Program-made: the position numbers and the translations under genes
In this document: in pieces, positions 397 to 53,242 of the stretch
How positions within the stretch are numbered: position 1 is the stretch's first letter
Layout of the letters: the number at the start of each line of letters is the position of its first letter
Source of the DNA: an uncultured Desulfovibrionaceae bacterium
GTDB taxonomy: Bacteria > Desulfobacterota > Desulfovibrionia > Desulfovibrionales > Desulfovibrionaceae
Assembly (NCBI GenBank): GCA_964372165.1
Contig: CAYJPT010000001.1
Span: 1,106-65,105 of the forward strand
DNA: 64,000 nt
Direction of reading: 5' to 3'
The notes under the pieces: generated by a model
Seen by the model: the letters and a program-made list of their open reading frames with translations, nothing else
The model's database searches: none
Told to the model about the DNA's origin: nothing

Positions 397-972
397 TTAT
401 TCTGACCACTCCTCAGGTGCTGGCACACTTGGCAAAGGAAGGTTGGCAGACATTTGCTGAGTATTTACTATGAAATTAAGTCTAAAAGACCATATACTAC
501 CTTCACGCTTGCGCACAAAATGAGAGGTTTTATAACGCAATTCTTTTTTCACCACACTCATAGGACCAAAAAAATTTCGCATAGTGCTAATGTCAGAAGC
601 TTTCCAGCGAAAAGCTCCAACACTCATTAATTGCTCCATAACTCTTAAAAATTGTTGTCCACCTTCATTATTTTGTCCGGTGTCAGTGAAGGTTACCTCA
701 GCTCCCGTAACCACAAGTTTATTCACATATATTGTGAGTAATACACTATGCCCATAGTCAACTACATAGCCTTGCTCACTTTTACGCGCATTGGTAAGAC
801 TTACAAATTTTGTTTCATACTTGCCCCAGAATCTTTGAAAAGATTCCCATAAAAATTGCGGAGGCTGCTGAATAGACTCTTGATTTTGACAAGCCATTAA
901 ACAAATACATATCATGAATGAGGAGAAAAACAATAATCTTTTTTTCACACTATCATCCCTTTGCTGTAGCAT
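397..972 (-). CDS. Hypothetical lipoprotein, last gene of the export block
   Basis: ORF 397..1029 trimmed to the internal ATG at 972 (MLQQRDDSVKKRLLFFSSFMICICLMAC). It has a basic n-region, a hydrophobic core and an LMAC lipobox-like cysteine. No recognisable catalytic motif. Confidence 0.5.
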   Translation of the reverse strand: MLQQRDDSVKKRLLFFSSFMICICLMACQNQESIQQPPQFLWESFQRFWGKYETKFVSLTNARKSEQGYVVDYGHSVLLTIYVNKLVVTGAEVTFTDTGQNNEGGQQFLRVMEQLMSVGAFRWKASDISTMRNFFGPMSVVKKELRYKTSHFVRKREGSIWSFRLNFIVNTQQMSANLPLPSVPAPEEWSE

Positions 973-2368
973 TTTCCCAAGGCGGAGGTGGGCGCCATAC
1001 CCACAATAAAGCAAGCAGTGGAACAACACCTATAATTTCTGCTATCAAACGCCCGACTATAGGCAGTAATATCCACCACAAACTAAAAGCCAAGGCTGGC
1101 ACACAGATAACAATTACCCACTGCAAGATACTTAGTGGTTTAGCCTTATATTGAAAATATGATACCGTGCAAATGGCTACCCAAACCTTGGTTAAAGTTA
1201 TAGCCAGTGCTGCCCCTTCTAAAGGCATCTTTTGTGTTAAATAAGTACACAATAAAATATTTATCCCCAAACCACTGGCATAAAATACTAAAAGCAATTT
1301 GTGTTTACGCATGCTTATCATTGCATACGCTGCAAGATTGTGCAAAAAAGCAGTTGCAATGCAGGGTGCTAAAATCCGCTGTGCGGTAACCGCAACATCA
1401 TAATTTGCACCATAAATAAAGGTCAAAATACGATCACTTTCCACACATATAACATAAATCAAAGGCATACAAGCAGCCCACAAACTACGTGCAGTTTGCC
1501 CTGTTAATTTTTGAAATGCTAGTTTATCTGTATCCCATAATTTAGCCATAACCGGAAAAACAACTTTTGCCAAAAGCGCACTTGATACCAATACAGAAAG
1601 ACCGTCAACAACCTCCCAAGCAACGCTATACGCACCAACTGCGGCATCTCCACCATATTTTTTTAGAAAAAATACATTTAACTTATTATAAAGAATAGCG
1701 CATGCGGCAATGCATGTAAAAACAATCCCTTGCTTCCATTTATTTGCTATTTGCCTCAAGTCAACAAGGCGTATTCCTATAAGTGGATTACGCCCCAGTG
1801 CCTTTAGAGAAATAGAAACAAGAAGTAATGATTCAAGTGGTTTATATAGAGCAATATAGATGGGAGGTGCATCAAAAAGCACTAAGGCTATACCAACACC
1901 GATACCAATAAGACTTGCAGGAACACGAATACGCATCTCTACATCTTGGCGCCCTCGTGCTTGGCACAAAGCAAAAAACGAATCGCTAAGAGCATCAATA
2001 CCAAGCCCTGCAGCAATCGACATAACTATAATGCGTAATTCTAAACTATAGCCTTGCCAAACAGTAAAAAACCACGTGCCTACTAAAGCTAAGCAAAGCA
2101 GCACAATTTTTAGCCATGTAATGGCTCCCAGCAATTGAAGCGGACGGTTTTCACGCCTAGCAAATGTTGAGATTAAAAAGTCATTAAGCCCAACATCAGC
2201 AATAAGGCGTACAATATACCCAAATGATAGAGCAAGCATAATCTGGCCAAGGACATCAGAGCTATGACGCGCTAGAATAATAGTGAACAATGTCCACGTA
2301 ACATCACGAGTCCACTGCGCACCTAGCACATATCCAAGCCGCTGTGGAATGCTTCTTAACTTGGCCAT
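953..2368 (-). CDS. MOP-superfamily flippase (Wzx / polysaccharide-biosynthesis-protein type)
   Basis: 471 aa, polytopic and hydrophobic throughout. Overall resemblance to oligosaccharide/lipid flippase family proteins. Overlaps or abuts its neighbours on the same strand. Confidence 0.7.
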   Translation of the reverse strand: MAKLRSIPQRLGYVLGAQWTRDVTWTLFTIILARHSSDVLGQIMLALSFGYIVRLIADVGLNDFLISTFARRENRPLQLLGAITWLKIVLLCLALVGTWFFTVWQGYSLELRIIVMSIAAGLGIDALSDSFFALCQARGRQDVEMRIRVPASLIGIGVGIALVLFDAPPIYIALYKPLESLLLVSISLKALGRNPLIGIRLVDLRQIANKWKQGIVFTCIAACAILYNKLNVFFLKKYGGDAAVGAYSVAWEVVDGLSVLVSSALLAKVVFPVMAKLWDTDKLAFQKLTGQTARSLWAACMPLIYVICVESDRILTFIYGANYDVAVTAQRILAPCIATAFLHNLAAYAMISMRKHKLLLVFYASGLGINILLCTYLTQKMPLEGAALAITLTKVWVAICTVSYFQYKAKPLSILQWVIVICVPALAFSLWWILLPIVGRLIAEIIGVVPLLALLWVWRPPPPWENATAKG

Positions 2369-2383
2369 GTAACCTGTATCAAT

Positions 2384-3436
2384 TTAAGATGCGTTTGGTT
2401 GTGCGCTTGGCTGTACAATCGGCTGCGCGTTCGATTCTCCCTGAGGATTTTGATTATCATCACTTGGAGCTTGCGCAGGCTCAGCCTTCGCATCATCTTT
2501 ATTTTCTTGTTTATTAGCATTTTTTACATTACGAGACATTGCCACTAAAACCTTAAAACCAGGCCTTAATTCAAAATCTGGATTAGGAATAGTAAATTCT
2601 ATTGTAAAATATGATGGTGCACCAATTTCTATGTTATTACTAGTCCAAGAAATATTGCTAACAGTAGCATCAATAACCTTATCATTTAAAGAAGGAATAG
2701 TAGCTTGGCCTATGTCACCAACCTTTATATCTTCCATATCGCCTTCATATACAAGGACATTAATTAGCATTGGATTCAAAGTTCCGATGGTAATGGGCTT
2801 TGCACCCTCTGCTAATTCTTTATTGGGAAACAATCCTGACGCTAGAGAAAGCACTCTACCATCCATAGGGGCTTTAAGTACTAAACTTTTAGGAAGGTCC
2901 ATACCTTCTTTAATGGTTACTCCAAAGTATTCACTCAATTCTTCAAGTCTTTGCTTAAAGTTTTTTTCTCTTTTTGCTACCGCACGTTTAAGTAATTTAA
3001 TACGTTGCCTTATGGAGTCAACATCTCCAGCTAAACGATCGGAAAGTTGATCTGGTCCAAGCCCACTTGATGACAATTTACGCGCCGTATTCCTATTATT
3101 AGTAAGTTCTACTAATTGCCTTTCCGTGGACAAAATATTAGCTCGGTCTTCTTCAGTATTAGCTCCAGTGGTTACTTCTTGTTGCAAGTTTCGTCTGGCA
3201 TCATCTGTAAGTGTGTATTTCATCAAAACTTGATCTTTCATAACACTTTGGCCAGGCTTAACTAAAACTTCTTCAACCACGGCTTCAAAAGGTAATGCAG
3301 TAGCACGTGTTACTTGGCTAACAACTTTGCCACTAAGTGAGGTAGTTACTGTGGCAGCATCTGCACTTTGCAGGCTTGTAAAAAATGAACAAAAAACACA
3401 TATCAGTGCTATGTTTTTTATTTTGTTAATAATCAT
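2384..3436 (-). CDS. HlyD-family membrane fusion (periplasmic adaptor) protein
   Basis: N-terminal signal/anchor (IALICVFCSFFTSLQSADA), a lipoyl-like hairpin (VEEVLVKPGQSVMKDQVLMKY), a long coiled-coil middle and a beta-barrel-like C-terminal part. Low-complexity Q/N/P/A tail. Confidence 0.75.
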   Translation of the reverse strand: MIINKIKNIALICVFCSFFTSLQSADAATVTTSLSGKVVSQVTRATALPFEAVVEEVLVKPGQSVMKDQVLMKYTLTDDARRNLQQEVTTGANTEEDRANILSTERQLVELTNNRNTARKLSSSGLGPDQLSDRLAGDVDSIRQRIKLLKRAVAKREKNFKQRLEELSEYFGVTIKEGMDLPKSLVLKAPMDGRVLSLASGLFPNKELAEGAKPITIGTLNPMLINVLVYEGDMEDIKVGDIGQATIPSLNDKVIDATVSNISWTSNNIEIGAPSYFTIEFTIPNPDFELRPGFKVLVAMSRNVKNANKQENKDDAKAEPAQAPSDDNQNPQGESNAQPIVQPSAQPNAS

Positions 3437-3437
3437 G

Positions 3438-4916
3438 CTAAAACTCCTCTGATGCTGGCAAACCTAAGAAACGTTCACTTAGCAGGCCAGCAACATCCAT
3501 CCACTTAATTCTTGCCATATCATAATCTAGCTCTACCATAATTAAACTAATACGTGCAGCAATAAGGTCTGCTTGTGCACTAGCTAACTCAGGGTACACT
3601 ACAACGCCGTCATTAAAGCTAATTTCTTTTTCTTTTAACAGCATTTCTGAAACTTTTAAGTTATTTTGGGCTATTTTAAGGCTATTTTCAGCCAATTTTA
3701 CCATCTGTTGCCCCTCTATCCATTCATGCGAAAACTCTGTACGAGCCTGAGCTTGCTCTTGAAATGCCTGAGCTTTTTCCATGCGTGCGGTCTGTACACC
3801 GCGATAACGCCTACCCCAATCTATAAGAGGAAATTGCAAATTCAAGTGTACAAATGTATCTTCTTGTCCATCAACAGGCTGATACTGTCCAGCAGGTGGA
3901 TTATTATCAACACGGATAGCTATATCTGGAATGTACTCTGCCCACGCTAACATTATGCCAAGATCCATCAAAGCAATTTGTCCGCGCAGTAAAAGTGCGT
4001 CTTCACTGCGATTCCAGTGTTCTTCCCAATGTAATTGTTCTCCGTCAAAACCTTGAAGAATATTTTTTGCATCGGTAGTATCAACATTAAATTTATGCTC
4101 TAACTCCACACCAACTATACTCTTCAACTTAGTGCGCAGCATTAAATCTTCAATCTTATTACGCTCAAGTTCGAGTTGTCTTTCACGCTCTTGTTGTATT
4201 GCTATGTTAAGAGATGCACCTTGTTTGCCCTCCACAGCTTCTAATTGCTGCCAATATTCGATTAATTTTTTGGCTATAGGCAAAAGTTGCTCTTGTAATG
4301 CAATAGTTTTTCTTTTTGCCTCAAGCTGCTGATACATACCAGCAATATTTAAAATAGCTTCAGCAATCGCTTTGCGATGTGTGGACAAAGCAATATCAAT
4401 CATCATAGCTTTTGATTTGTGATTAAAATATGTTGAGACAGGATTTGGGAAACTCATATTAAAAGCTACCCGCATCTTTGTTTTAGCATAGTCTGCCGGC
4501 AAGTCTTCAAGTCCAGTATTTAGAGCTGTAATATTATTTGAAATGTCTAAAGATATAGTTGGCTCTGGTAAATATTGCCAAACTGCATCAACAAGCTTGA
4601 GCTTACTCATCTCAATAGATACGGCTGAGTTAGCTAGTAATGGAGATTGCTGTATTGCCAAATACACGCTATCATCAAAGGAAAATGCTTTGTCAGAATT
4701 ATATAGGTTTGGCATTGAAGCTTCTAGCTTTGCTTTATGCTCAACAGGCACTCCTGGAGCAGACTCAAGCCAGTGTCGTGCTGGCAATTCAGGCGCACTC
4801 ATACCAGCTTTTTGTGATGCGCAACCTCCAAGGAAAGCTATCATCATAAATAAACATATGATATTTTTTGAAAGATATAACCTCTGCCCCACAAACCAAC
4901 CACTAAATTTAAACAT
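3438..4916 (-). CDS. TolC-family outer membrane efflux protein
   Basis: 492 aa with a lipoprotein-like signal (FLGGCAS) and two long helical repeats typical of outer membrane factors. The stop is 1-2 nt from the adaptor gene start. Confidence 0.75.
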   Translation of the reverse strand: MFKFSGWFVGQRLYLSKNIICLFMMIAFLGGCASQKAGMSAPELPARHWLESAPGVPVEHKAKLEASMPNLYNSDKAFSFDDSVYLAIQQSPLLANSAVSIEMSKLKLVDAVWQYLPEPTISLDISNNITALNTGLEDLPADYAKTKMRVAFNMSFPNPVSTYFNHKSKAMMIDIALSTHRKAIAEAILNIAGMYQQLEAKRKTIALQEQLLPIAKKLIEYWQQLEAVEGKQGASLNIAIQQERERQLELERNKIEDLMLRTKLKSIVGVELEHKFNVDTTDAKNILQGFDGEQLHWEEHWNRSEDALLLRGQIALMDLGIMLAWAEYIPDIAIRVDNNPPAGQYQPVDGQEDTFVHLNLQFPLIDWGRRYRGVQTARMEKAQAFQEQAQARTEFSHEWIEGQQMVKLAENSLKIAQNNLKVSEMLLKEKEISFNDGVVVYPELASAQADLIAARISLIMVELDYDMARIKWMDVAGLLSERFLGLPASEEF

Positions 4917-4925
4917 TTTTTTACC

Positions 4926-7900
4926 TCATGACACAACAGAAAGCATACGTAAACCTTGCAATACGAGCAAAACCTTACCATTTACCTCAACTATTTGCGC
5001 ATTAATTAATTTTTCCAAGCCTGAACCTTGTAATTGCCAATCTATATGAGCAATGTCATAATTTTGCATAGCAGACACGTGGCTAAAATGTAAGATATCA
5101 ACTATTTGGTAATTTTCGTATGTTGGCAAAGCCAACTTTTGTATCAACCCAATGCTTGCGATTTGCAAGTTATAGTACAAATCATGCTGTTCTGCAATGT
5201 TTTTTATTGAAAATATATGCTCATGAATATTTTTTTTATCTAATAATTCCTGCCTATTATCTCCCCATAAAGGAATTATACTTTCCTCTTCATTACTTAG
5301 GTAAATTTTTCCTTTAGCGTAGCATTGTTTCTCTTGTAAACGCCGTCCATTTTCAGAAATTGCATAAATCTCAAGCGATGATTGGCATGGCAAAACCAAA
5401 CCTTGGCCTGCATTTGTCCATTGCTCAGCTTCTATTATCGCTTCACCCTCGCGCGTGATACCATCTGGACATTTAAATGCACTTTCAAAATGTAAATCAC
5501 TAGCTCCACTACATTGCAACCAAGTAAAACCCATACGTGCTGCACTATATAATGTATCTAACATAAAAAGAGGTGACACTTCGGGGGCAGATGTTTTTTG
5601 ACTAGCCAAAAAACCATCTGCATAAACAGAAAAATTACGACGTGCAATAAAATTTGTCTGGCTATCTAACTTCATTTGCTTAGGGTATAAATGTGGAAAG
5701 TTATGCATATCTTCAGCAAGACCAGCTTTTGCCACTGCTGTGGGGCTTGCATCTGGCATAAGGGTTGGCACTTGCGGAAATGATTTATGCCAAATAACAT
5801 TGTTCTCAGTACCACATAAAAGCTCACGAGCAAAAAGCATTGGCAATACATCATAATCAAGTAAACCTACGCCCAGCGCAGTAAATACACTTTGTAAACC
5901 CTCATTAGATAGCATACCCACATTACCATTTACAGGTGCTAACCATAGGCAACGCCAAAACAAATCATGCTTTGTACAAAACTGCTCCAATAAGGCAGCC
6001 ATAGCTCGATTAGCTGCAGCATAATTAGCTTGTCCTATATTACCACACCAGGCAGCAAGCGATGATATACCCACAGCATAGCGCAAACCATACTTAACCG
6101 ATTCTTGCAAAAGGTTTTCTAAGCCATCATATTTAACGGCCATTACCTGCGATATTTGCCTTGTGCTCAATTCACTCAACGGTACATCTTCATTTATACC
6201 AGCTCCATGTATTAAGCCATGTATTTCACCCCAAGTTTCAAAAATGCTTGCCAGCGTTGTTTGTACTTGTTTTTTATCACTCACATCACAGGCGTAATAA
6301 ACACATTTTGCCCCAAAACCTGCCAGTTTTTCTATAACTTGTTGAGAAGGCGCAGCACTACGCCCTAATAGCAACAAGGTGCATTCAAGCATGGCTAAGC
6401 CCTCTAAAGCCTTTGGAGTAATGCCACGCCCTCCACCTGAAACTATAATTACTTGCCCTTTGCTAATGGGTAAGCCAAATCTACCAGCAGCCCAAGGTTT
6501 TTGCTTTAAGCGAAGCGATCCCATGTAGCTTGAGTTTAAACATGAGTACAAAGGAAATTCACTATGCGTGCATAATATTTTTTGCATAAAGCCTTGCATT
6601 GCGCCATTACTTAAACCTTGCTTAGTGTGTATGGCTCTAAAATGACGCTGTGGATATTCCTGCGCTGCCGTCAAGAGTAATGCATTTAAGCTTGCAAAAA
6701 GATTTGAACCAAGTAGCGATGTTGTCAATTCTTCATGTACTATACACATTTGCCCTTTTTCACTACGCAAAAATGCCTGTACAAGACTCATGTATTCTAT
6801 AATAGGTGAAGAATCTTTATAGGATAAAATTTCATCTAGATATGGCAAAGCTATGACAATCAGACCTGGTTTCAAGTCTTGCTCAAGCGTTGCTTGTGCG
6901 TGAAGTATATCCTCAACCCTTAATACTTGCTCACTGCCAAAGGTTTGCGTCAAAAATTCATACCATTGTTGAGCATAGTCATTTTTCCCAACTATCACAG
7001 CCGGTAAAAATTCTTTTTTATCACTAAGCAATTGTGCATTCCACTCCTCACCTGGCATTACAAAAGGGCATTTTTCAATAACACTACGTACAATGGGATG
7101 AGTGGTAATAGGCTTTTCTATGGTAGGTTGTTCATCACTTGTTGAATCTATATTTAATGAACGCGCATTAGCCACAACCTTTGCTAAATCTGCAATAGTG
7201 GCAACATCTATAAAATCCTCAAAGTTGACCTTAACATTAAATGTCTTTTCAATTTCATTAATAACTACAGGAAAACGACTTGAACGCATAGCAAGGTCAT
7301 AACGCAAATCCATGTGTGCAGACAATTGGTGCGACTCAAAACCTGTTACTCGTACCAAAAGCGGTATAATGTCTTCTACATAATTGGCAGTGTTTTCAGT
7401 TTTTGTTTCAAGACATTTTGCGTCGCTTTGATCTTTTGCAATTTTTTTTCGCTTTGGTACAAAATTATCCGGAACAACATAAGTACTTGGGCCTTTAATA
7501 TGCCCAAGAGAATAAAGCTCAGCCACAGCCCTGCGCATGGCTTCAACTTCTTTACCTTTACGTCCAACGGAAATACGATGCGCTGTAGGTTGTATTTCTG
7601 AAATAAGCCGACTTAAAGTTGCAGTTGGACCAAGCTCCACAAAATGGCGAACAGAATAATCATTATATACTCTATTAACACAATCCACCCAGCGTACCGG
7701 GCTTTCATCAAGGTCAGCTATATATTCGCATATACTTTCTTTATCGTTTGGATATAAATCTGCAGTAACATTGCTTAACACTGGTGTATGTCCAGCTTGA
7801 ATAGTAAATTCCATCAAACTATCAATGGATATTTTGCGAATAGTACGCAAACCAGGATGATGGAAAGCCATACTAATATTAAGCAGGCCTACCATAATTT

Positions 7901-8762
7901 TTTGCTCTTTTAATTTAGCGCAGGCTTTTTCTAAATCGCTTCGTGTTCCACTTAAAATGTACTGCGTAGGGCTATTATAACTTGAAACATAAAAATTTGG
8001 AAAATCCTCTAAAACCTGCTTGATTACATCATAAGGAGCATGAACAGCCATCATACCACTATCGTGATTACCCTCTTGCTCCATATCATCTATAATTTTT
8101 GAATGCTTATTGATGATACCCCACGCATCTTCAGGCGAATATACTCCCGCTAGGCATAAGGCAATAAGCTCTCCTAAACTATGCCCAACAACAATATCCG
8201 CTTTATATCCTAGTGTCTCAAGGTAGTATGCTTGGGCATATGAAACGAAAAAAATATACGGAGCTTGCCAGCGTGTGCGCATAAGCTTTTTTTTATCGGT
8301 TTCATCAAGTAAGGCTAAAATATCCCAATCTGAAACAGCAGCAATGCGCTCCATGGCTGCTCTAACAGCAGGAATATTATCATAAAGTTCACGCCCCATA
8401 TGAGCAAAAACGCTGCCTTGCCCTCCGGTAATAGTAGCAATTCTAGGCTTATCTTGCTTTTTTTCCAGCCATATACCCTGCTTGCGCAAATCCTTTAAAG
8501 TAGCATTATCTGGATTTTTTCCAATGTTAGTTATATAATTACGCCATGATGGTGTTATAGAGCCAATTCGCCATAATTCACCTGCATGACTAAGGCTAAT
8601 TAAGCGAACACCATTTTCTACGTGTTGACTTTCTATGAAGTTTTCTTGTTCCTGTCCTGCACCCATAGATACGGCATTAGTACTTTCCAATTCAATGCTC
8701 CCACATAAAAGCCAATAATATGGCTTTTCAATATAAACTATATTAATTAACACATAAAACAA
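4926..8762 (-). CDS. KS-less PKS-like multidomain protein: acyltransferase - ACP-like - ketoreductase, plus unassigned N- and C-terminal regions
   Basis: AT motifs GGQGSV, GHSLGE (nt 8172-8186) and MAFHHP. ACP-like four-helix region around nt 7271-7315. SDR/KR motifs GGGRGIT (about nt 6421-6450) and YAAAN (about nt 6004-6032). No CHH ketosynthase motifs anywhere. The track start is a non-ATG codon; the true start may be the ATG at 8666. Confidence 0.85.
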   Translation of the reverse strand: MFYVLINIVYIEKPYYWLLCGSIELESTNAVSMGAGQEQENFIESQHVENGVRLISLSHAGELWRIGSITPSWRNYITNIGKNPDNATLKDLRKQGIWLEKKQDKPRIATITGGQGSVFAHMGRELYDNIPAVRAAMERIAAVSDWDILALLDETDKKKLMRTRWQAPYIFFVSYAQAYYLETLGYKADIVVGHSLGELIALCLAGVYSPEDAWGIINKHSKIIDDMEQEGNHDSGMMAVHAPYDVIKQVLEDFPNFYVSSYNSPTQYILSGTRSDLEKACAKLKEQKIMVGLLNISMAFHHPGLRTIRKISIDSLMEFTIQAGHTPVLSNVTADLYPNDKESICEYIADLDESPVRWVDCVNRVYNDYSVRHFVELGPTATLSRLISEIQPTAHRISVGRKGKEVEAMRRAVAELYSLGHIKGPSTYVVPDNFVPKRKKIAKDQSDAKCLETKTENTANYVEDIIPLLVRVTGFESHQLSAHMDLRYDLAMRSSRFPVVINEIEKTFNVKVNFEDFIDVATIADLAKVVANARSLNIDSTSDEQPTIEKPITTHPIVRSVIEKCPFVMPGEEWNAQLLSDKKEFLPAVIVGKNDYAQQWYEFLTQTFGSEQVLRVEDILHAQATLEQDLKPGLIVIALPYLDEILSYKDSSPIIEYMSLVQAFLRSEKGQMCIVHEELTTSLLGSNLFASLNALLLTAAQEYPQRHFRAIHTKQGLSNGAMQGFMQKILCTHSEFPLYSCLNSSYMGSLRLKQKPWAAGRFGLPISKGQVIIVSGGGRGITPKALEGLAMLECTLLLLGRSAAPSQQVIEKLAGFGAKCVYYACDVSDKKQVQTTLASIFETWGEIHGLIHGAGINEDVPLSELSTRQISQVMAVKYDGLENLLQESVKYGLRYAVGISSLAAWCGNIGQANYAAANRAMAALLEQFCTKHDLFWRCLWLAPVNGNVGMLSNEGLQSVFTALGVGLLDYDVLPMLFARELLCGTENNVIWHKSFPQVPTLMPDASPTAVAKAGLAEDMHNFPHLYPKQMKLDSQTNFIARRNFSVYADGFLASQKTSAPEVSPLFMLDTLYSAARMGFTWLQCSGASDLHFESAFKCPDGITREGEAIIEAEQWTNAGQGLVLPCQSSLEIYAISENGRRLQEKQCYAKGKIYLSNEEESIIPLWGDNRQELLDKKNIHEHIFSIKNIAEQHDLYYNLQIASIGLIQKLALPTYENYQIVDILHFSHVSAMQNYDIAHIDWQLQGSGLEKLINAQIVEVNGKVLLVLQGLRMLSVVS

Positions 8763-8766
8763 GATT

Positions 8767-8950
8767 CAGCACAATTAATTGGCACAGACTGATGACAAAC
8801 CCCCTTTCAGGCGTTTGTGCCGCCTAAGGCAGACAAGCTGCCTTGGCAGTAAGGCACGAAAATCATTCGTTTAACGGCGCAAATGAATTGCGCCTACTCT
8901 TGATTTATCGGCTCGTGCTGACTTTGTCAGCACTCTGAGCACAATTAATT
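8767..8950. repeat. Structured ~156-nt module flanked by an exact 14-bp direct repeat (AGCACAATTAATTG) and splitting a palindrome
   Basis: Direct repeats at 8767-8780 and 8937-8950. The second lies in the perfect 16-bp palindrome GCACAATTAATTGTGC (8938-8953). The interior carries at least four hairpins, for example AAGGCAG-ACAAG-CTGCCTT at 8825-8843. Its core is homologous to 16709-16794. Confidence 0.6.
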
Positions 8951-9346
8951 GTGCAGTAGTCTTAAAATATTCAATAAAAGACCACAAAGACAGAAAAAAT
9001 ATTTTTCACAACATAACAATTCAAACTATACTCAAAAAAATACATATCATATCAAATTCTTATGTGGAATAAAATTACAACTCCAAATTAATTCGCAAAA
9101 TGAGCACAGTATAGCATTATTACTTCCTACATTAGAAGTAACATGCTCATCAAAGCTGCAAGGTCTTTGATTTATAAATTATAGGACATTTTATCACACT
9201 TGTCTATCAAGGCATAGGTTTGCCCAAAACCAAGTTAATATATATTCTTGCCAAAAAGAAAAGTTTGTTGTAAGCATCTTCATTCACGTGCTACATGATA
9301 ACATTGTCAATACAAGCACCATATAAAACTTTGGGAGATAGATGGC

Positions 9347-10645
9347 ATGAATAAAGAGCAAGAATTGAACACCATGTCCGATGAGCAAATAGAAAAAAGT
9401 GATTCTTCGTTGGAGTTCAATTATGTGCACAAAAAACTTTCCGTTGGTCGAGCTGTGGCCATGGGAAAAAAAATGGGTATTCGCAACCCACTATTTTTGT
9501 GCCACGATAAAGCTGCCAAAGCTTATACCACCATTGAGGGCAAAGAATACCTCAATTTTTCTACCTATGATTACCTAGACATTAATACACATCCTGAAAT
9601 AACCGCCGCTGTTACTAAAGCTGCAGAAAAATACGGAACTTCTGCCGGTGCAAGCCGCCTTGTTGGTGGGGAGCGCCCACCACATTTAGAGCTTGAACGC
9701 GCCATTGCAGATTTTTATGAAGTTGATGATAGCATTGTTTACGTAAGTGGCCATGCAACCAATGTTTCAACATTGGGTTTTCTCTTCACCTCGCGCGATT
9801 TAATATTGCATGATAATCTTGCACATAACTCCTTAATGCAAGGAGCTAAGCTTTCATCTGCAACGCGCATGTCTTATACGCATGATAACACCGACGCTTT
9901 AGAAGCTATATTAAAACAACGCCGTAATGACTTTCGCCATGTAATAATTGTAACTGAAGGCCTTTTTAGCATGGACGGCAATATACCTGATTTACCACGC
10001 ATCGTTGAACTAAAAAAACAATATAATTGTATGCTACTTGTAGACGAAGCACACTCATTAGGTATACTTGGTGCAACAGGGCGTGGTGCACGTGAGCATT
10101 TTAATATTGACCCCAATGATGTTGACATGTGGATGAGCACCCTTAGTAAATCACTGTGTGGTTGCGGGGGTTTTATTGCCGGCAATAAAAAACTTATTGA
10201 AAACTTAAAGTATGGCTCTCCAGGCTTTGTTTTTAGCGTAGGAATGTCACCTATACTTGCTGTTGCATGCAAAACAGCTCTTGACATAATACAACGTGAA
10301 CCAGAGCGTGTACACAAATTACAACATATTAGTAAGTATTTTCTTGACTATGCCAAAAGCCTCAACCTTGATACTGGTGTTGCACAAGGATATGCCAATG
10401 TTCCAATAATCGTTGGTAATTCTATGGTGACAGGCGTTGTATCCAACGCACTATTAAACCGTGGTATTTACGTTATGCCTATTACTTTCCCGGCAGTGCA
10501 GGAAGGTACAGCAAGACTTCGTTTCTTCTTATCAGCTGCACATTCTGAAGCTGATGTACGAAGAGCACTTGATATTACAGCAGAAGAATTACCAAAGGCT
10601 GCAAAAACCATTGAAGAATGGATTGCAAACAACCCACAAGATTAA
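9347..10645 (+). CDS. PLP-dependent alpha-oxoamine synthase family enzyme (BioF / serine palmitoyltransferase / CqsA class)
   Basis: 432 aa with a class-II aminotransferase fold. VDEAHS and the PLP-lysine motif STLSKSL (about nt 10136-10160). SD-like GGGAGA precedes the ATG. Confidence 0.85.
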   Translation: MNKEQELNTMSDEQIEKSDSSLEFNYVHKKLSVGRAVAMGKKMGIRNPLFLCHDKAAKAYTTIEGKEYLNFSTYDYLDINTHPEITAAVTKAAEKYGTSAGASRLVGGERPPHLELERAIADFYEVDDSIVYVSGHATNVSTLGFLFTSRDLILHDNLAHNSLMQGAKLSSATRMSYTHDNTDALEAILKQRRNDFRHVIIVTEGLFSMDGNIPDLPRIVELKKQYNCMLLVDEAHSLGILGATGRGAREHFNIDPNDVDMWMSTLSKSLCGCGGFIAGNKKLIENLKYGSPGFVFSVGMSPILAVACKTALDIIQREPERVHKLQHISKYFLDYAKSLNLDTGVAQGYANVPIIVGNSMVTGVVSNALLNRGIYVMPITFPAVQEGTARLRFFLSAAHSEADVRRALDITAEELPKAAKTIEEWIANNPQD

Positions 10646-10834
10646 GTATTCACTTTAACAAGATAATTTTCACACTTTGTGCTATGCACTTAATGAATAT
10701 TATTTATTAGTGAACATTTTTTAGTAAAAAAATACTGCGCATCGTTATATTATGTTTCTTTTTGTCAAACAATGTACAGGCAAAAAGCTAGTGAAACATT
10801 CAAAAATTACAGTATAAAATACAAATTTATGACA

Positions 10835-10876
10835 ATTGAAGACCTCTGCGCAATCTATTGTGCAGAGGTCTTCAAT
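10835..10876. repeat. 20-bp-stem palindromic hairpin of the CTCTGCACAAT / ATTGTGCAGAG repeat family
   Basis: TTGAAGACCTCTGCGCAAT-CT-ATTGTGCAGAGGTCTTCAA has one G-T pair and no U-tract. The same arm sequence bounds the elements at 16626-16828 and 53110-53194. Confidence 0.6.
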
Positions 10877-10919
10877 CTTAAAAATACAAATATGTCATTG
10901 GGCATAATATGGAGTTACT

Positions 10920-12839
10920 ATGTGTGGCATAGCAGGTTTTTATCAACTTGATGGGCAAAATTTACCGCATGAAGCCTCTACATGGCTAAAAAATATGACA
11001 GACGCCATAAACTATCGTGGCCCAGACGGTGAGGGACAATGGATTGATGGTGCTGTTGCTCTAGGGCATAGGCGCCTTTCTATAATTGACCTAAAAACTG
11101 GTGCGCAGCCTATGTCAGATGCCTCTGACCAAGTATGGGTTACCTTCAATGGTGAAATATATAATTTTCCAGCACTACGTGAAGAATTAAAAGCACGCGG
11201 TTGCACCTTTCGCACAAACTCAGATACAGAAGTTATACTATATGCTTGGCAAGAATGGGGTAAGGATTGTGTGCAGCATTTTGAAGGCATGTTTGCCTTT
11301 GTCTTATATGATAAAAGACAAAAAATCCTTTTTTGCGCTAGGGATCGTTTTGGGAAAAAACCTTTCTATTACACGATTCAACAGGGTCGCTTTATTTTTG
11401 CCTCAGAACTTACAGCTATAAAATGCTTTCCAAACTTGAGCTTAAGTGTAAAGCCACAATCTCTTATGCGTTATTTAGCATATGAGTATGCGCCAACACC
11501 TGAGTGCATTTATACCGAAGTGCAAAAACTGCCTCCTTCACACAGCCTCATGCTATGTGAAGGAAAAACAACACTGTCGCGCTATTGGGAAATACCAACG
11601 CCGCTTGAAAATGTCACAGTTTCTGAAGATGACCTTGCAAGTGAGCTTTGCCACCTGCTAGACAAAGCTGTGGAGCGGCGCATGATAAGTGATGTGCCAC
11701 TTGGTGTTTTTCTATCCGGTGGTATTGATTCTTCAATAATCACAGCCCTAATGGCTGGCAAAGCTGATAAAATAAAAACATTTTCCATAGGGTTTAAAGA
11801 AGCAAGCTATGATGAGTCACAATATGCGCGCATTATTGCAAACCACTATACAACCGACCATTGCGAGCACATACTATCCGCCGATTATTGCGCAGAAATT
11901 TTGCCAGATGTTATAAGTCGTCTTGATGAGCCTATGGCTGACGCATCTGTTGCGCCAACATATTTATTATCAGAGCTTACCCGAAAGCATGTTACTGTGG
12001 CCCTTGGCGGTGACGGATCAGATGAATTATTTGCAGGCTATGAACATTTTATTGGCTTAAAAGTTGCTGAACATTACAACAAATGGCCTTCATTGTTGCG
12101 TAAAGGAATTGAAGGTATTTCATCAAGTTTACCTGCCAGTTCAAACTATATTAACTTAAACAATGCATTATCTACTTTTCTGGGTGCAGCTTATGCTCCA
12201 CCATGGCAAAGAGTACAAAGCTTGCTCACAGCCTTTACCCCTGAAATGCAACAAGATATTTGGAATAAAAATTTTATCAAGGATAACCATGATTTTTTAG
12301 CTTTAGATTCACTTTTTGCACCTACTAAGGAACATTTTTCCCACTGGCCAACCTCCAGCGCAGTGGGCAATGTAGAAAGAGCTGCTTATGTTTATGCACG
12401 ACAATTTCTTGTCGATGATATTTTAACTAAAGTGGATCGCTGCTCAATGTTGAAATCGCTTGAAGTGCGAGCACCATTTTTAGATACACAAGTGGCAGAA
12501 TTTGCAGCTAGACTACCACTACAGTATAAACTTAAAGGATTTAAAAGAAAATACTTACTTAAAAAAGCTTGTTCTGGGCTTTTACCCAAGGAAATTCTTA
12601 ATCGCAATAAGCGCGGATTTCAGATTCCAGTGGCCGCATGGTTACGAGGTTCCTTACGCCCCATGGTAGAAGAGTTATTAGGGGAACGCTTTTTGCAAGA
12701 ACAAGGTGTATTTAGTGTACCACACATTAAATCACTGGTAGATACGCACATGAGTGGCAAAAAAGATTTACGCAAGCCCCTTTGGACTTTGCTTGTGCTA
12801 CAAATGTGGTGGAGGGCAAACAAGCCAAAAATTTTATAA
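10920..12839 (+). CDS. Asparagine synthase (glutamine-hydrolysing) family amidotransferase, probable pathway-specific paralog
   Basis: N-terminal MCGIAG (Ntn Cys2), the SGGIDSS PP-loop, 639 aa. Confidence 0.9.
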   Translation: MCGIAGFYQLDGQNLPHEASTWLKNMTDAINYRGPDGEGQWIDGAVALGHRRLSIIDLKTGAQPMSDASDQVWVTFNGEIYNFPALREELKARGCTFRTNSDTEVILYAWQEWGKDCVQHFEGMFAFVLYDKRQKILFCARDRFGKKPFYYTIQQGRFIFASELTAIKCFPNLSLSVKPQSLMRYLAYEYAPTPECIYTEVQKLPPSHSLMLCEGKTTLSRYWEIPTPLENVTVSEDDLASELCHLLDKAVERRMISDVPLGVFLSGGIDSSIITALMAGKADKIKTFSIGFKEASYDESQYARIIANHYTTDHCEHILSADYCAEILPDVISRLDEPMADASVAPTYLLSELTRKHVTVALGGDGSDELFAGYEHFIGLKVAEHYNKWPSLLRKGIEGISSSLPASSNYINLNNALSTFLGAAYAPPWQRVQSLLTAFTPEMQQDIWNKNFIKDNHDFLALDSLFAPTKEHFSHWPTSSAVGNVERAAYVYARQFLVDDILTKVDRCSMLKSLEVRAPFLDTQVAEFAARLPLQYKLKGFKRKYLLKKACSGLLPKEILNRNKRGFQIPVAAWLRGSLRPMVEELLGERFLQEQGVFSVPHIKSLVDTHMSGKKDLRKPLWTLLVLQMWWRANKPKIL

Positions 12840-12885
12840 ACAGTCTTTTTAATTATAAAATACAGACTGTTCACTGGAGGAAGCT

Positions 12886-13515
12886 ATGTTTAAACGTCTA
12901 ATTTTTACTGCACTATTATGCCTTATTATGGTTGTGCCTGCTGCGGCAGAAACTTCCGGATTTTATGCTGGAGGTAAATTTATTTACTCCTATCAAACTT
13001 CTTGGGGCGGTGGATTATTTAGTGAATCCTACTCTCAAAGTGTCACTGGTGGTGGTTTTTTTGCAGGCTATGATTTTTATCAACAAAGTGACCTACCCAT
13101 ACGTGCTGAAATAGAATATGCTTTTCGTGGAAACCTTTATAAGGAAGATAATGCATCAGGCTACGCATCAGAAACTTTTTATAATATGCAAACATTATTA
13201 GTTAATTTTTATTATGACTTTTACAATGAAAGTTCCTTTACCCCCTATGTAGGTGCAGGTTTAGGTGTTGGATTTATGAATGGTAATTATAAATTTGATG
13301 TATCCGGAAGCAGTTTTGAAGGTAGTATGACCGACACAGTGCTTGCCTGGCATGTAGGTGGCGGTGTTGGCTATGCCATAACAGATAGAATTACTGCTGA
13401 CCTTGGTTATCGCTATCAAACCTTTGGCAGTAGCTACAAAGATTCCAACAATCAAGAGTTTGAAACTTCCACCAGCGGCCATGAAATAAGCCTTGGTGTA
13501 CGCTTTAACTTCTAA
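12886..13515 (+). CDS. Small outer-membrane beta-barrel protein
   Basis: Signal peptide ending AAAE, alternating aromatic/Gly beta-strand pattern, and the C-terminal GVRFNF with a terminal Phe typical of OMPs. Confidence 0.75.
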   Translation: MFKRLIFTALLCLIMVVPAAAETSGFYAGGKFIYSYQTSWGGGLFSESYSQSVTGGGFFAGYDFYQQSDLPIRAEIEYAFRGNLYKEDNASGYASETFYNMQTLLVNFYYDFYNESSFTPYVGAGLGVGFMNGNYKFDVSGSSFEGSMTDTVLAWHVGGGVGYAITDRITADLGYRYQTFGSSYKDSNNQEFETSTSGHEISLGVRFNF

Positions 13516-13520
13516 AATCA

Positions 13521-13542
13521 TCCGCACAATAAATTGTGCAGA
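13521..13542. repeat. Degenerate copy of the GCACAAT-ATTGTGC palindrome
   Basis: TCCGCACAAT-AA-ATTGTGCAGAA, immediately after the OMP stop codon. Confidence 0.45.
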
Positions 13543-13566
13543 AGTCTAAAATTTCATTAACAAAAC

Positions 13567-15624: not shown

Positions 15625-15815
15625 TTAAGGAAACGCATATTAAATTAACGAGTCAAAAAACATATTGTGCGTTTCCTTGCAAAGTAGGCAATTGTGCCTG
15701 CTTTGCACGCCGAATGAGAGCAAAAAACCACGTTTTTTTGCGTCCCACAGGGCGAATGAAGGCAGTGTGCCTTTCTGATTTATGCTGCTTGCAGAATAAA
15801 TCAGCATTTCCTTAA
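15625..15815 (+). repeat. Structured repeat (TTAAGGAAA-terminated family), long copy, in the lepA / glycosylase divergent promoter region
   Basis: An 82-nt core (15667-15748) matches the reverse complement of 32709-32850 with 5 mismatches. Hairpins include AAGGAAACGC...GCGTTTCCTT, CAAAGTAGGCA-ATTG-TGCCTGCTTTG and GCAAAAAA...TTTTTTGC. It carries about 50 extra nt (two hairpins) absent from the other copy. Confidence 0.65.
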
Positions 15816-16469: not shown

Positions 16470-16560
16470 CTATGTATTAAATGCTATAAAATTGCAGTGA
16501 CGCACATTTCATGCTTTGTTTCTGATAATTTATCTAAAAAAATAAGTATACAACAAACAA

Positions 16561-16602: not shown

Positions 16603-16625
16603 TACTAATATTTTATAATACTGAA

Positions 16626-16828
16626 AGCTCTGCACAATTGTTTTCAGATATGAATTAATGGTTAAAACTTAAAATCTACTTAAACACCACAGCCAAGCGT
16701 ACAGAGCGAAAGGCACGAAAATCAATCACTTAACGGTGAAGCAAAGCTCCACCTATTCTTGATTTTCGGTTGCGCTGATTAACGTCAACGCTCTATGAAC
16801 CTCTACATAATGAGTTATGCAGAGGTTT
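16626..16828. repeat. Composite element: CTCTGCACAAT-type inverted ends enclosing the structured module also seen at 8849-8936
   Basis: Left end AGCTCTGCACAATTG (16626-16640); right end TTATGCAGAGGTT (about 16815-16828). The first ~60 nt align with 53110-53170. The core at 16709-16794 aligns with 8849-8936 with compensatory changes in two hairpins. Confidence 0.6.
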
Positions 16829-16864
16829 CAATACTGTTATTTTATTTACGTAATTCGCACACAT

Positions 16865-26472: not shown

Positions 26473-26523
26473 AAATACCCCTTTGGGGACGTAAGAAGTA
26501 AATTCTGGCTTGTTTTACGGCAC
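26473..26523. repeat. Copy of the ACCCCTTTGG...TTCTGGC...TTTTACGGCAC repeat module
   Basis: AAATACCCCTTTGGGGACGTAAGAAGTAAATTCTGGCTTGTTTTACGGCAC aligns with 29698-29748 and, more distantly, with 8797-8856. Confidence 0.55.
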
Positions 26524-26563: not shown

Positions 26564-26611
26564 CTAAATTGTCAGAAAGTCGCATTAGATGCTTTGTTTC
26601 TGACAATTTAG
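26564..26611. terminator. 15-bp perfect-stem hairpin in a convergent intergenic region
   Basis: CTAAATTGTCAGAAA-18 nt-TTTCTGACAATTTAG. A half-copy (GCTTTGTTTCTGATAATTTA) occurs at about 16512-16531. Confidence 0.5.
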
Positions 26612-29697: not shown

Positions 29698-29776
29698 AAA
29701 TACCCCTTTGGAGACGCCAGAAACAAGTTCTGGCTTATTTTACGGCACGCAAAATTTTTCTGTAAGAAAAATTTCG
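29698..29776. repeat. Copy of the ACCCCTTTGG...TTCTGGC...TTTTACGGCAC repeat module with a downstream helix
   Basis: AAATACCCCTTTGGAGACGCCAGAAACAAGTTCTGGCTTATTTTACGGCAC, then AAATTTTTC-TGTAA-GAAAAATTT. The hairpin GCCAGAA-ACAAG-TTCTGGC shares the loop ACAAG with 8825-8843 but has a different stem. Confidence 0.55.
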
Positions 29777-32708: not shown

Positions 32709-32850
32709 ATTTAAGGAAATGCCCCGGTGGGACGCAAAAAAGCACGGTTTTTTGCTCTCATTCGGCGTGCAAAGTAGGCACAATTGCCTACTTTGTAAGG
32801 AAACGCACAACATATTTTTAACTTGTTGATTTATCAGCGTTTCCTTAATA
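32709..32850 (-). mobile_element. MITE-like non-autonomous element (TTAAGGAAA-terminated family) flanked by a 7-bp direct repeat
   Basis: The ends ATTTAAGGAAATGC and GCGTTTCCTTAATA are inverted repeats (11 of 14 match). An exact AGCTGGC flanks both sides (32702-32708 and 32851-32857). The interior is the inverted homolog of 15625-15748. Confidence 0.6.
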
Positions 32851-41656: not shown

Positions 41657-43819
41657 TTATGACTCCAAGGTTAAAAAGTCCTTCATAATAACTTTTAATC
41701 CAAAGCCAGAAAAGTTTACTTGGTACTTATCAGGTGGTAAAAATTTTACCATTTTACCACGACCAAAAATTTTATGCTGACAATAGCCAAGTGGTAATGA
41801 TTCGGACTTACTTACTGTTGGCTGTTCACTTTCAATTTTTTTCTTATTATCAGATGGTGGTAAAAGTTGCACACTAGGTGTAAAACTACTCTGGTTTTGC
41901 ACTCTTTTTTGCATAATTTTACCGTAGCTTTCATACCATTCCTCACACATACCACGTGGAAGTTCTCGCAAAAAAGGACTGGGGGTTGCATAAATGCTGC
42001 CGGCACTGCCCCTATTGCTAACACAAGATGGTGCATAAAGCTCAAGGTGTTGCTTGGCACGAGTGCAAGCTACATACATTAAGCGCCGCTCTTCTTCAAA
42101 ACCTTCAGCATCGTTCAAAGCATGCCTTGAGGGGAAACGCTCCTCCACTAAATCCATTATAAGCACCGCATTCCACTCAAGACCCTTAGCAGAGTGCACA
42201 GTTGAAAGAATAATACATTGTTCATCAATATCATCTTCCTCCACTGTATCAAGCATTAAATCTGCAATAAAAAGATCCAAATGATTTGCACTTTCTGCCA
42301 TATGCAAAGTTTCATCCAAGCCTTGCCTGCGCCTTGGCCAGTCATCAGGGTAAGCTGCCTCCAACATAGGTTGATAATGCTCAATAATTGCTTCTATTTG
42401 CTCGCTAGGGCTACGCATAAGCACGCGCTTAGCATCCAAAAATTGCATATCTGCTAAAAAACCTGGATATTTTGCAAACGCTTTTTCTGTGGCATTGGCA
42501 TCACCCTTAATGGCTATGCCATAAAGTTTTAGCATGGTTTTTTTGCCAATTCCCTTGTGCAACATGGCCACACGTTCAAAAGCTGGCATATCAAAGGGAT
42601 TTATCAACAAGCGCGCATAAGAGAGAACATCTTTAATATGCGCTGCATCTGCAAAGCGTATTCCGCCATATTTTCTAAATTTTATTCCCGCACGCTTGAG
42701 AGAAATTTCTAAATTATATGAATGAAAACCAGCACGAAATAGAACTGCTATTTCATGTGGTAAATAGCTCTGTAATAATTCAATAATACGTCTTGTTATA
42801 ATATCAGCCTGACTTTTGTCTGTTCCTGGTATAACCAGACGCACGGGATTGCCTCCAATGCGCTTGGTAAAAAGTGTTTTTTGATATGACTCTTGGGCAT
42901 TTTGCAATAAGGTATTGGCTACATCTAATACCGGCTGCGTTGAGCGGTAGTTTTCTTCTAAACGAATAACCTTAGTATTTGGAAAATTATCTGGAAAGTC
43001 CAAAATATTTCGTACATTAGCCCCACGAAAAGCATATATAGACTGGGCATCATCACCTACAGCCATAACATTACCATGCCCACCAAAGTCCTTGCTACCC
43101 AAAAGTCTTACTAAACGTGCTTGCACCAAGTTAGTATCTTGATACTCATCCACCATAATATGCTGTAAGCCACGTCTAAAATTCTGTAAGGCAGGGCTAT
43201 TTTCTTGCAAAAGAGCTTCAAGTTCAAATAGCAAGTCATCATAATCAAGCAAACCTTGTGTACGCCTATAATCTGTATATGCAGCATTAATATCTTGTAA
43301 AGCTTCAGTATGTGGCAATAAGTGATTTGCCTCACGCTGCAAAACTTCTTCTATGCTAATTTCTTTATTGCGAGCTTTGCTTAAAATACCAACTATATTT
43401 TGGCTTTTTGGAAAAGACCTATCACCTTTACCAAGCTTTAACTCCTCACGACAATGTCTAATGGCAGACGTGATATCGGCACTATCCATAATTGAAAAGT
43501 GCCTTCCATCAAGCCATGCCGGTCGATATTGCCGTAACACACTGTAGGCAAAGGCATGAAACGTGCCCCCACGTACACCCATTAAGCCACGCTCAAGTAG
43601 TTGTGATGCCCTTTTAAGCATTTCTTGTGCTGCTTTGCGAGTAAATGTAAGCAAGAGCATATGCTCAGGGTCAACCTCTTGTTCCACAAGCCAAGCCAAG
43701 CGGTAAATAATGGTACGAGTTTTACCACTGCCTGCTCCAGCAATAACTAAAACTGGACCATCAGGTGCTGTCACCGCTGCATATTGTGCAGGATTCAAAC
43801 TTTTTTCATAATCAATCAT
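41657..43819 (-). CDS. UvrD/Rep/PcrA-family ATP-dependent DNA helicase
   Basis: Walker A AGAGSGKT, the DEYQDT motif II and VHSAKGLEW motif VI. 720 aa. Confidence 0.9.
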   Translation of the reverse strand: MIDYEKSLNPAQYAAVTAPDGPVLVIAGAGSGKTRTIIYRLAWLVEQEVDPEHMLLLTFTRKAAQEMLKRASQLLERGLMGVRGGTFHAFAYSVLRQYRPAWLDGRHFSIMDSADITSAIRHCREELKLGKGDRSFPKSQNIVGILSKARNKEISIEEVLQREANHLLPHTEALQDINAAYTDYRRTQGLLDYDDLLFELEALLQENSPALQNFRRGLQHIMVDEYQDTNLVQARLVRLLGSKDFGGHGNVMAVGDDAQSIYAFRGANVRNILDFPDNFPNTKVIRLEENYRSTQPVLDVANTLLQNAQESYQKTLFTKRIGGNPVRLVIPGTDKSQADIITRRIIELLQSYLPHEIAVLFRAGFHSYNLEISLKRAGIKFRKYGGIRFADAAHIKDVLSYARLLINPFDMPAFERVAMLHKGIGKKTMLKLYGIAIKGDANATEKAFAKYPGFLADMQFLDAKRVLMRSPSEQIEAIIEHYQPMLEAAYPDDWPRRRQGLDETLHMAESANHLDLFIADLMLDTVEEDDIDEQCIILSTVHSAKGLEWNAVLIMDLVEERFPSRHALNDAEGFEEERRLMYVACTRAKQHLELYAPSCVSNRGSAGSIYATPSPFLRELPRGMCEEWYESYGKIMQKRVQNQSSFTPSVQLLPPSDNKKKIESEQPTVSKSESLPLGYCQHKIFGRGKMVKFLPPDKYQVNFSGFGLKVIMKDFLTLES

Positions 43820-53194: not shown

Positions 53195-53242
53195 TTTATT
53201 TTTATTATTGCAGAAGCTTTTTATCTTTTATGAATTGGCAGC

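Follow-up and report, generated by a model that had tools for sequence, protein, structure and literature searches.

A 153-nt structured element, probably a MITE-like transposon, between copies of a duplicated palindrome in an uncultured Desulfovibrionaceae bacterium

An AT-ACP-KR gene on the minus strand (4926-8762) and a class I/II aminotransferase gene (9347-10645) are separated by a divergent spacer of 584 bp in the 64,000-nt stretch of DNA from an uncultured Desulfovibrionaceae bacterium that was analysed here (the window), and within this spacer an exact 14-mer, AGCACAATTAATTG, occurs twice on the plus strand. What lies between the two repeats, and how did it arrive there? The first-pass annotation had read the arrangement as an insert of 156 nt flanked by a 14-bp duplication. 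The repeat is exact as described, although its coordinates had been given one base low (8767-8780 and 8937-8950, for 8768-8781 and 8938-8951), and the insert is indeed flanked by a duplication; the element itself, however, is 153 nt long, and the duplicated unit is an 18-bp palindrome, one copy of which carries a 1-nt deletion. We consider it likely that the segment at 8785-8937 is a non-autonomous, MITE-like DNA transposon, here called Type A, that inserted into the palindrome by structure-dependent targeting.

Downstream of the aminotransferase gene lie genes for asparagine synthase, an outer-membrane beta-barrel protein and LepA; OEP/HlyD efflux components are encoded at lower coordinates, beyond the AT-ACP-KR gene. 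The insert had been placed a few nucleotides from the AT-ACP-KR start, which holds for the longest ORF, whose TTG start at 8762 is five bases from the left repeat, but not for the first in-frame ATG, which lies near 8666. G+C content rises by 21 points from spacer to insert (51% at 8782-8937, against 30% in the remaining spacer and 39% in the whole window).

Taken alone, the AGCACAATTAATTG pair is marginal, with an ungapped local score of 14 against a maximum of 12.5 in 200 shuffles of the flanks. The right 14-mer is part of a perfect palindrome, GCACAATTAATTGTGC, at 8939-8954. Because the family boundaries set by a covariance model (CM R1, built from 32 full-length copies) define the ends of the element as 8785 and 8937 on the plus strand, the duplicated unit is the entire palindrome: AGCACAATTAATTG-GCA on the left (8768-8784) and the intact AGCACAATTAATTGTGCA on the right (8938-8955). 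These two copies match at 17 of 18 positions, one T having been deleted from the left copy, and the 14-bp duplication is an uninterrupted stretch of the 18-bp one. The right copy is followed by AGTAGTCTTAAAA; taken together with GTAGTCTTAAAA further downstream, it looks like a right end of Type B, a related family described below. No terminator-like site was detected in 8600-9400, and the flanking palindrome did not register as a Rho-independent terminator. An origin of the direct repeat from long terminal inverted repeats that themselves end in a palindrome was considered and rejected; by the family boundaries the palindrome is not part of the element, and the hairpins beside other copies are unrelated.

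The element so bounded has the general features of a MITE. Like MITEs, which are under about 500 bp long, it is short and non-coding, with no ORF of 50 or more amino acids within 8785-8937, and it ends in terminal inverted repeats, CAGACTGATGACAAA on the left (8785-8799) and TTTGTCAGCACTCTG on the right (8923-8937), which pair at 13 of 15 positions. Both repeats were identified by an inverted-repeat search, in which 8782-8799 and 8923-8940 gave 83% complementarity, together with the conservation of ends across the 32 copies.

A covariance model had been proposed as a check on the first-pass annotation, and it recognised the window copy over model positions 1-152 with 152.5 bits (E value 1.5e-44) and further full-length copies with 138-188 bits. 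Copies were collected with the motif GCAYRAAAATCA-N29-TAYTYTTGAT, which is conserved among three related copies and was run on a species-representative genome collection; at least 119 stretches matched. More than 90 related copies were found among the matches listed, and all confirmed members reside in at least 24 uncultured Desulfovibrionaceae/Mailhella MAGs, all from one project, ERP123703. Many dispersed copies per genome, as would be expected of a MITE, are present: a single MAG, CAYJOQ, holds at least 26 loci. On the fetched loci, the matches of CM R1 listed comprised 36 full-length Type A copies, in the score range given above, and about 65 more distant relatives, and a second, diverged copy lies in the window itself (16651-16795, 69.8 bits). 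In an alignment of the window Type A element with 31 further full-length copies, column identity averages 89%; judged by eye, the copy at locus L030, which has the same score of 152.5 bits, is the most similar.

Type A length is constant at 151-153 nt, with conserved termini CAGAYTRATGACAAA...TTTGTCARCACTCT (bounds also written CAGAYTRATGACAAA...TTTGTCARCACTCTG); copies start with CAGAYTRATGACAAAC and finish with TTTGTCARCACTCT(G/C), and the terminal inverted repeat is an imperfect one of 15 bp. Many copies are located at contig ends, as expected of repeats, which break short-read assemblies. The family appears confined in host range. Motif matches in Listeria, Patescibacteria, Bacteroidota and other taxa were chance matches that the covariance model did not recognise, and two matches on viral contigs, on which the model was likewise silent, were not members. 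BLASTN of the element against a plasmid collection gave no match, and the family core pattern found one match in the JGI metagenomes, of 11.8 bits only, the family being essentially absent there.

Comparison with orthologous loci had also been proposed, and it agrees with an insertion. An exact-protein look-up of the window aminotransferase returned no record, so relatives were reached via homologues; the closest, at 75-79% identity, belong to MAGs of uncultured Desulfovibrionaceae. Since the nearest relative is only 79% identical in this protein, it is too distant for a base-level comparison of empty sites, and presence or absence was read across genomes at the level of orthologous intergenic regions, not of conspecific alleles. 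In L001 and L003 the spacer between the same two divergent genes measures only 227 and 296 bp, respectively, against 584 bp in the window, and neither the element nor the palindrome is present in it. Similarly, a filled site in L011 corresponds to an intergenic region of the window without the element (43806-43940), and a filled site in L060 to one in L043 without it. The predicted empty-site junction, TTCAGCACAATTAATTGTGCAGTAG, had 0 matches in the JGI metagenomes. Two of the three related aminotransferase loci (L001 and L002) carry diverged copies elsewhere beside that gene. A single-copy conserved regulatory RNA of the aminotransferase locus was rejected as an explanation; the positions and orientations of the copies differ, and the family is dispersed genome-wide.

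A direct repeat of 14-37 bp abuts Type A on both sides in 24 of the 28 copies with both flanks, with local alignment scores of 14-34.5 against maxima of 8-13 for shuffled flanks; duplication at both ends is as found for MITEs, its length and variability being atypical. The duplicated sequence differs from locus to locus, yet nearly all fold as stem-loops, often bidirectional terminators with A and T runs. Examples are AAAAAAACCCCATTCTTGGGGTTTTT at L028 (26 bp, A and T runs included), AAAAAAGCATTGATAACAATCAATGCTTTTTT at L113 (32 bp), AACATCCTCTTGTCTGTGACAAGAGGATGT at L085 (30 bp) and a duplication of 33-37 bp at L111. The centre of the duplicated segment falls within 2 nt of the hairpin dyad in 21 of 23 copies (median 24 nt, range 18-33), and the base preceding Type A is not conserved, the left-flank termini being heterogeneous. 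In four or five copies (L067, L070, L087, L044, L099) the left and right hairpins are unlike, or hairpins are missing; this calls for a secondary rearrangement, and recombination between copies would have that outcome.

Type A is, then, a dispersed family of constant length with inverted-repeat ends, bracketed by duplications of locus-specific stem-loops, and across the family its target is any local stem-loop, often a Rho-independent terminator. At the locus in question, the evidence supports entry of the element into a pre-existing 18-bp palindrome between the AT-ACP-KR and aminotransferase genes, all of which was duplicated. The claim that a small non-coding element had integrated into a palindrome is upheld by the multi-copy family, by the different local hairpin duplicated at each copy and by the related spacers that lack the element.

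The origin of the target palindrome was traced to a second set of elements. Type B elements measure about 203-205 nt between the outer bases of their repeats, have the ends (R)AGACCTCTGCRCAAT...ATTGYGCAGAGGTCT(Y), and consist of an AT-rich left half and a right half with the same core as Type A; they are flanked by ordinary 5-6-bp duplications (e.g. AATAT, ATGAC, ATACC). The window copy of Type B occupies 16623-16829 and is flanked by AATACT. Intermediates at L037, L090, L013 and L061 have a Type A body with hairpins of the Type B kind on the flanks.

Simple palindromes resembling that at the insert had been reported at 10835-10876 and 13521-13542; similar palindromes do exist in the window, but at 10838-10873 and 13518-13546. 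In look, these solo palindromes are REP-like. Each is made up of two Type B repeats, one left and one right, joined head to head, and the palindrome at the Type A insert is likewise made of fused Type B terminal inverted repeats. Elsewhere in the window, at 53109-53195, Type B repeats enclose only an AT-rich loop, and at the orthologous site upstream of asnB a full Type B element is present in L002 and a solo palindrome in the window. The palindrome that Type A entered here is therefore composed of the fused ends of a second, related MITE family and is no generic hairpin.

In order to account for duplications of this kind, we favour a model in which a transposase acting in trans would recognise its target by structure, as an extruded cruciform or hairpin, and would attack both strands at the 5' feet of the extruded stem-loop; repair synthesis would then copy the entire stem-loop to each side of the element. 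Duplications centred on the dyad are what such a cruciform-attack model predicts. The orientation of Type A relative to flanking genes showed no bias (12 copies the same and 12 opposite with respect to the upstream gene, 11 and 15 with respect to the downstream gene), as expected for DNA transposition into a symmetric target. Since an insertion leaves a whole hairpin to the neighbour on either side, it should do almost no harm, and this would account for the spread of the family.

The fetched loci, 832 kb in all, were searched for the enzyme. They contained no autonomous partner with matching ends, and an all-against-all comparison of their 576 ORFs produced no multi-copy transposase-like ORF; beside 3'-truncated copies there was no transposase, only ordinary genes. 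Candidate ends without the interior, considered as traces of an autonomous partner, proved to be chance matches, additional copies, or copies already counted and now read from the opposite strand. Given that a transposase was not found, assignment to an IS family is unjustified.

The interior of Type A is densely structured, and every internal hairpin named in the first-pass annotation, as well as the long-range helix, is present in the MFE fold of the plus strand. Subterminal hairpin 1, ACAAAC...GTTTGT (8795-8818), shows 88% pairing in Type A and double changes in two of its pairs. It is followed by the hairpin 2 domain (8819-8855), in which GCC and GGC enclose AAGGCAG-ACAAG-CTGCCTT; its AAGGCAG stem spans 8826-8844, 6 of 9 inner pairs are compensatory and 98% of cells are paired. 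The core common to Type A and Type B (8857-8910) is formed by the long-range helix CGAAAATCA/TGATTTATCG (8857-8865 with 8901-8910), which encloses hairpin 3, GGCGCAA-ATGAA-TTGCGCC (8876-8894), with 5 pairs showing double changes. Subterminal hairpin 4, GTGCTGAC-TTT-GTCAGCAC (8915-8933), shows double changes at all 8 of its pairs among 103 distinct sequences. Measured from the ends of the element, the outermost hairpins lie about 10 nt in on the left and 4 nt in on the right. Folded as RNA, the 188-nt unit reaches -80.8 kcal/mol on the plus strand (shuffles, -48.4 +/- 3.9; z -8.4) and -87.0 kcal/mol on the minus strand (z -8.9), with shuffle means for the two strands of about -48 to -53 +/- 3.9.

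Sequence variation among the copies follows this structure. In the 32 Type A copies, 95% of the cells of a 47-pair model are standard pairs, and at 12 pairs both partners change. Covariation scores 0.136, compared with 0.067 in shuffles (0 of 500 attain the observed value) and 0.013-0.036 with slid partners. When 103 distinct members were aligned to the model, double changes appeared at 38 of the 47 pairs and the score was 0.272, against 0.110 in shuffles and 0.04-0.055 with slid partners, in an alignment that was fitted to the structure and is consequently biased towards it. Pair 238/349 of the long-range helix (alignment A3) is GC in 61 sequences and AU in 36, and hairpin 3 has at least 6 different stem sequences. 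The single-stranded core segments (UCGUUUAAC and CUACUC) hardly vary from one subfamily to another. Among the core-helix mismatches, 121 are A.C and 23 are G.U, which hints that the complementary strand would fold better; most of this excess, however, goes back to two positions that many copies have inherited, so that it amounts to about two events. Templated (quasi-palindrome) mutation is another source of compensatory double changes in palindromic DNA, one in which no selection on RNA is involved.

Strong compensatory variation of the interior is not what a transposase needing the ends alone would predict. The four-helix interior, common (compensatory changes included) to elements as different in their termini as Type A, Type B and the intermediates, may be a functional single-stranded RNA or ssDNA required in cis, in which case the family would be a new 'hairpin-homing' structured class rather than an ordinary IS deletion derivative; we regard this as unlikely. 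An interior required in cis may, for example, be a scaffold or guide for a mobilising enzyme that recognises structure, or else a small-RNA module that is itself mobile and rides along with terminators.

Harder to credit is that the element is primarily a functional structured RNA whose dispersal is secondary, acting as a small RNA, as an antisense RNA or as the 5' leader of the AT-ACP-KR mRNA. The first-pass annotation had likewise suggested that the insert may serve as a leader or antisense RNA, or may simply disrupt the promoter. The very stable fold on both strands, the strong covariation in all helices and the near-invariant single-stranded core are in keeping with an RNA, and the excess of A.C over G.U would fit selection on the strand co-directional with the AT-ACP-KR gene. 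On that strand, a promoter-like site reading from 9206 to 9178 (11/12 matches) could read through the element and may yield, for instance, a long leader; a plus-strand match at 8747-8775 overlaps the left palindrome copy only. Some Type B copies also have a TTGAAA-N17-TAWAAT motif upstream of the core. However, no promoter-like or terminator-like site was found within the window Type A element (8785-8937), and Rfam 15 gave no match in the region at E values up to 10 and none window-wide at the gathering threshold; the best match in the region, twister-P3, scored 17.1 bits where 39.9 would be required (E 4.6). This reading also sits poorly with a family that is scattered over unrelated loci in dozens of copies per genome, with duplicated targets and no fixed orientation towards neighbouring genes. 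Its strand argument is weakened by the origin of most of the A.C excess in two inherited positions, and its covariation argument by the templated route to double changes.

We hold it very improbable that Type A is a relic of a single-strand DNA transposon mobilised by an HUH/Y1 enzyme, whether of the IS200/IS605 palindrome-associated type or REP/RAYT-like, with the subterminal hairpins as recognition sites. A subterminal hairpin does lie near each end, as in palindrome-associated elements of the IS200/IS605 group, the structure is conserved beyond the sequence, and the mismatches of the core helices are asymmetric between strands. Insertion of IS200/IS605 elements takes place 3' of a fixed tetra- or pentanucleotide and leaves the target unduplicated, whereas Type A has duplications of 14-37 bp, a heterogeneous left flank with no conserved preceding base, and terminal inverted repeats; no Y1 transposase or TnpB-like repeated ORF was detected near the copies. 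The likeness to REP, BIME and REPIN sequences lies in the dispersed intergenic palindromes, sometimes in arrays. REPINs, which are moved by RAYT tyrosine transposases, consist of two REPs in inverted orientation and have no target duplication (PMC3337134; PMC2817692), whereas the solo palindromes here are fused Type B repeats and Type A has four helices, inverted repeats and duplications; no RAYT-like repeated ORF was found among the 576 ORFs, and the family does not qualify as REP or REPIN.

Lower again do we rate insertion by a site-specific recombinase, or template switching at a hairpin where replication stalled, by which the flanking repeats would be att-like or products of slippage. Duplications of up to 37 bp are far above the normal staggers of transposases, and tandem arrays of the form hairpin-element-hairpin-element are frequent, occurring at seven loci (L030, L111, L050, L062, L081, L113 and L116). 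'Insertion with long target duplication' is also described for restriction-modification genes with no recognisable mobile element (PMC2853133). Against this, the repeat sequence is different at every locus, and because the flanking repeats share no common att core, site-specific recombination was ruled against; the element ends are precise and bear inverted repeats, and the centring on the dyad fits a symmetric cruciform attack better than slippage. A chance repeat in an AT-rich spacer with fortuitous hairpins, for which one could cite the score of the AGCACAATTAATTG pair alone (14, against a shuffled maximum of 12.5), can be dismissed in view of the covariance-model match (E 1.5e-44), the more than 100 related copies elsewhere, the fold z score of -8.4 and the 21-point rise in G+C.

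How, then, does a MITE-like transposon with structure-dependent targeting compare with known systems? The closest parallels in target choice are IS1630 of Mycoplasma fermentans and ISMhom-1 of M. hominis (IS30 family), which duplicate the inverted repeats or stem-loops, variable in both length and sequence, that they enter (PMC2853133; PMC3317919). The IS1630 duplications are put at 19-26 bp in one paper (PMC2853133) and at 16-26 bp in the other (PMC3317919, citing Calcutt et al. 1999), and insertion of ISMhom-1 preserves the flanking ORFs (PMC7648426). The duplications of Type A are also hairpins (14-37 bp), a different one at each site, and its choice of target is IS1630-like. IS1630, in contrast, is an autonomous element of 1.2-1.4 kb with 27-bp inverted repeats and an IS30-type transposase, whereas Type A is a non-coding element of 153 nt with 15-bp inverted repeats, found in Desulfovibrionaceae, and no IS30-type partner occurred among the fetched loci.

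IS1272, of the IS1182 family, also uses a stem-loop target that is recognised by structure and not by sequence; it is presented as 'stem-loop replacing' and structure-dependent, its target stem-loop being removed with no duplication (PMC5678879). Type A differs in that the stem-loop is kept and duplicated, not replaced. The cruciform model set out in the same paper includes a pathway b, whereby the entire stem-loop becomes duplicated after attack at its 5' feet (PMC5678879), and this pathway alone fits Type A.

Classical bacterial MITEs (Correia/NEMIS, ERIC, RUP, QMITE, Chunjie) are small, non-coding, multi-copy and mostly intergenic, with terminal inverted repeats and transcripts that are predicted to fold stably (PMC10969869). 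Type A shares their small size, lack of coding capacity, copy number and terminal inverted repeats. Classical MITEs, however, have fixed duplications of 2-9 bp and form mainly one long hairpin through their inverted repeats, whereas the duplications of Type A are long, variable and hairpin-shaped and its interior has four helices with compensatory variation; Type B, in the same genomes, behaves like a classical MITE in its 5-6-bp duplications.

Literature searches returned no description of the Type A/B family, nor of MITEs in Desulfovibrionaceae or Mailhella, and no paper that mentions project ERP123703. In the searchable literature, hairpin-duplicating insertion is rare and documented for few autonomous ISs, and it is new for a non-autonomous element of about 150 nt with a co-varying four-helix interior.

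Structure-dependent targeting with duplication of the stem-loop is, as a mechanism, still a model, and in this family the junctions of dozens of natural insertions lie open to direct reading. For those who work with these MAGs, the repeats fragment the assemblies, and where an element precedes biosynthetic genes, as it does the AT-ACP-KR/aminotransferase pair, it can be taken for a conserved operator or a regulatory RNA. The family shows how a mobile element colonises terminators and palindromes without destroying them, and how one MITE family nests in the fused ends of another; the covariation of the interior is the part that could open something new.

A second family member lies in the window at 16623-16829 on the plus strand (69.8 bits against the covariance model built from 32 full-length Type A copies), and belongs to Type B, the related family of elements of roughly 203-205 nt. 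Its terminal inverted repeats read GAAAGCTCTGCACAAT...ATTATGCAGAGGTTTC, it is flanked by a 6-bp duplication, AATACT, and it shares its 3' core with the Type A element at 8785-8937.

The Type B ends also occur on their own. The solo palindromes at 10838-10873 and 13518-13546 each consist of the left and right Type B terminal repeats fused head to head, as in GAAGACCTCTGCGCAAT-CT-ATTGTGCAGAGGTCTTC, and the site orthologous to 10838-10873 in L002, one of the aminotransferase-homologue loci from related MAGs, is occupied by a full Type B element. A "mini" element at 53109-53195 lacks the structured core; its Type B repeats enclose an AT-rich loop of some 55 nt, and it looks like the Type B left half alone.

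When 103 distinct family sequences were aligned to the model structure, the core helices (window 8857-8933) contained 121 A.C mismatches, as against 23 G.U pairs; the complementary strand would therefore fold better, as RNA or as single-stranded DNA, although most of the A.C excess is supplied by two positions that are common by descent.

Tandem arrays of the form hairpin-element-hairpin-element were present in several MAGs (L030, 5066-5347; L111, 5667-5999; L062, 953-1354), which suggests that amplification often takes place locally, between the duplicated hairpins. The Type B variant of locus L020, on a contig binned as Lentimicrobiaceae (CAYJOY010000034.1), is the same as that in the Mailhella contigs L040 and L115, and the contig itself is probably mis-binned.

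Other repeats also occur. A further dispersed family, found at 26473-26523 and 29698-29748 and in the aminotransferase-homologue locus L001 (7595-7700), consists of AAATACCCCTTTGGGGACGCCAGAAG...TTTTACGGCAC followed by a hairpin, AAATTTTTCT...AGAAAAATTT; in L001 it directly adjoins a diverged Type A copy. Two 46-nt repeats of hairpin character (TAAATTGTCAGAAA...TTTCTGACAATTTA; 16487-16532 and 26565-26610) are 76% identical, and one of them lies just upstream of the Type B element at 16623-16829. A 28-nt near-palindrome, TGCAAAGTAGGCAATTGTGCCTGCTTTG, occurs twice (15678-15705 and 32768-32795; 82% mutual identity), and the two copies may be members of another hairpin repeat family.

In three genomes, a family element immediately adjoins the same aminotransferase gene (window 8785-8937; L002 7517-7721; L001 7448-7599). 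The three positions are non-orthologous and the orientations differ; this recurrence could arise because spacers rich in hairpins hold elements at high density, or because the locality is a hot spot. The surrounding genes (window 953-13515), a neighbourhood partly conserved in L001-L003, encode OEP and HlyD-type efflux components, an AT-ACP-KR protein, a class I/II aminotransferase of the 8-amino-7-oxononanoate-synthase type, an asparagine synthase and an outer-membrane beta-barrel protein, and together they look like a cluster for the biosynthesis and export of a lipid or amino-lipid.
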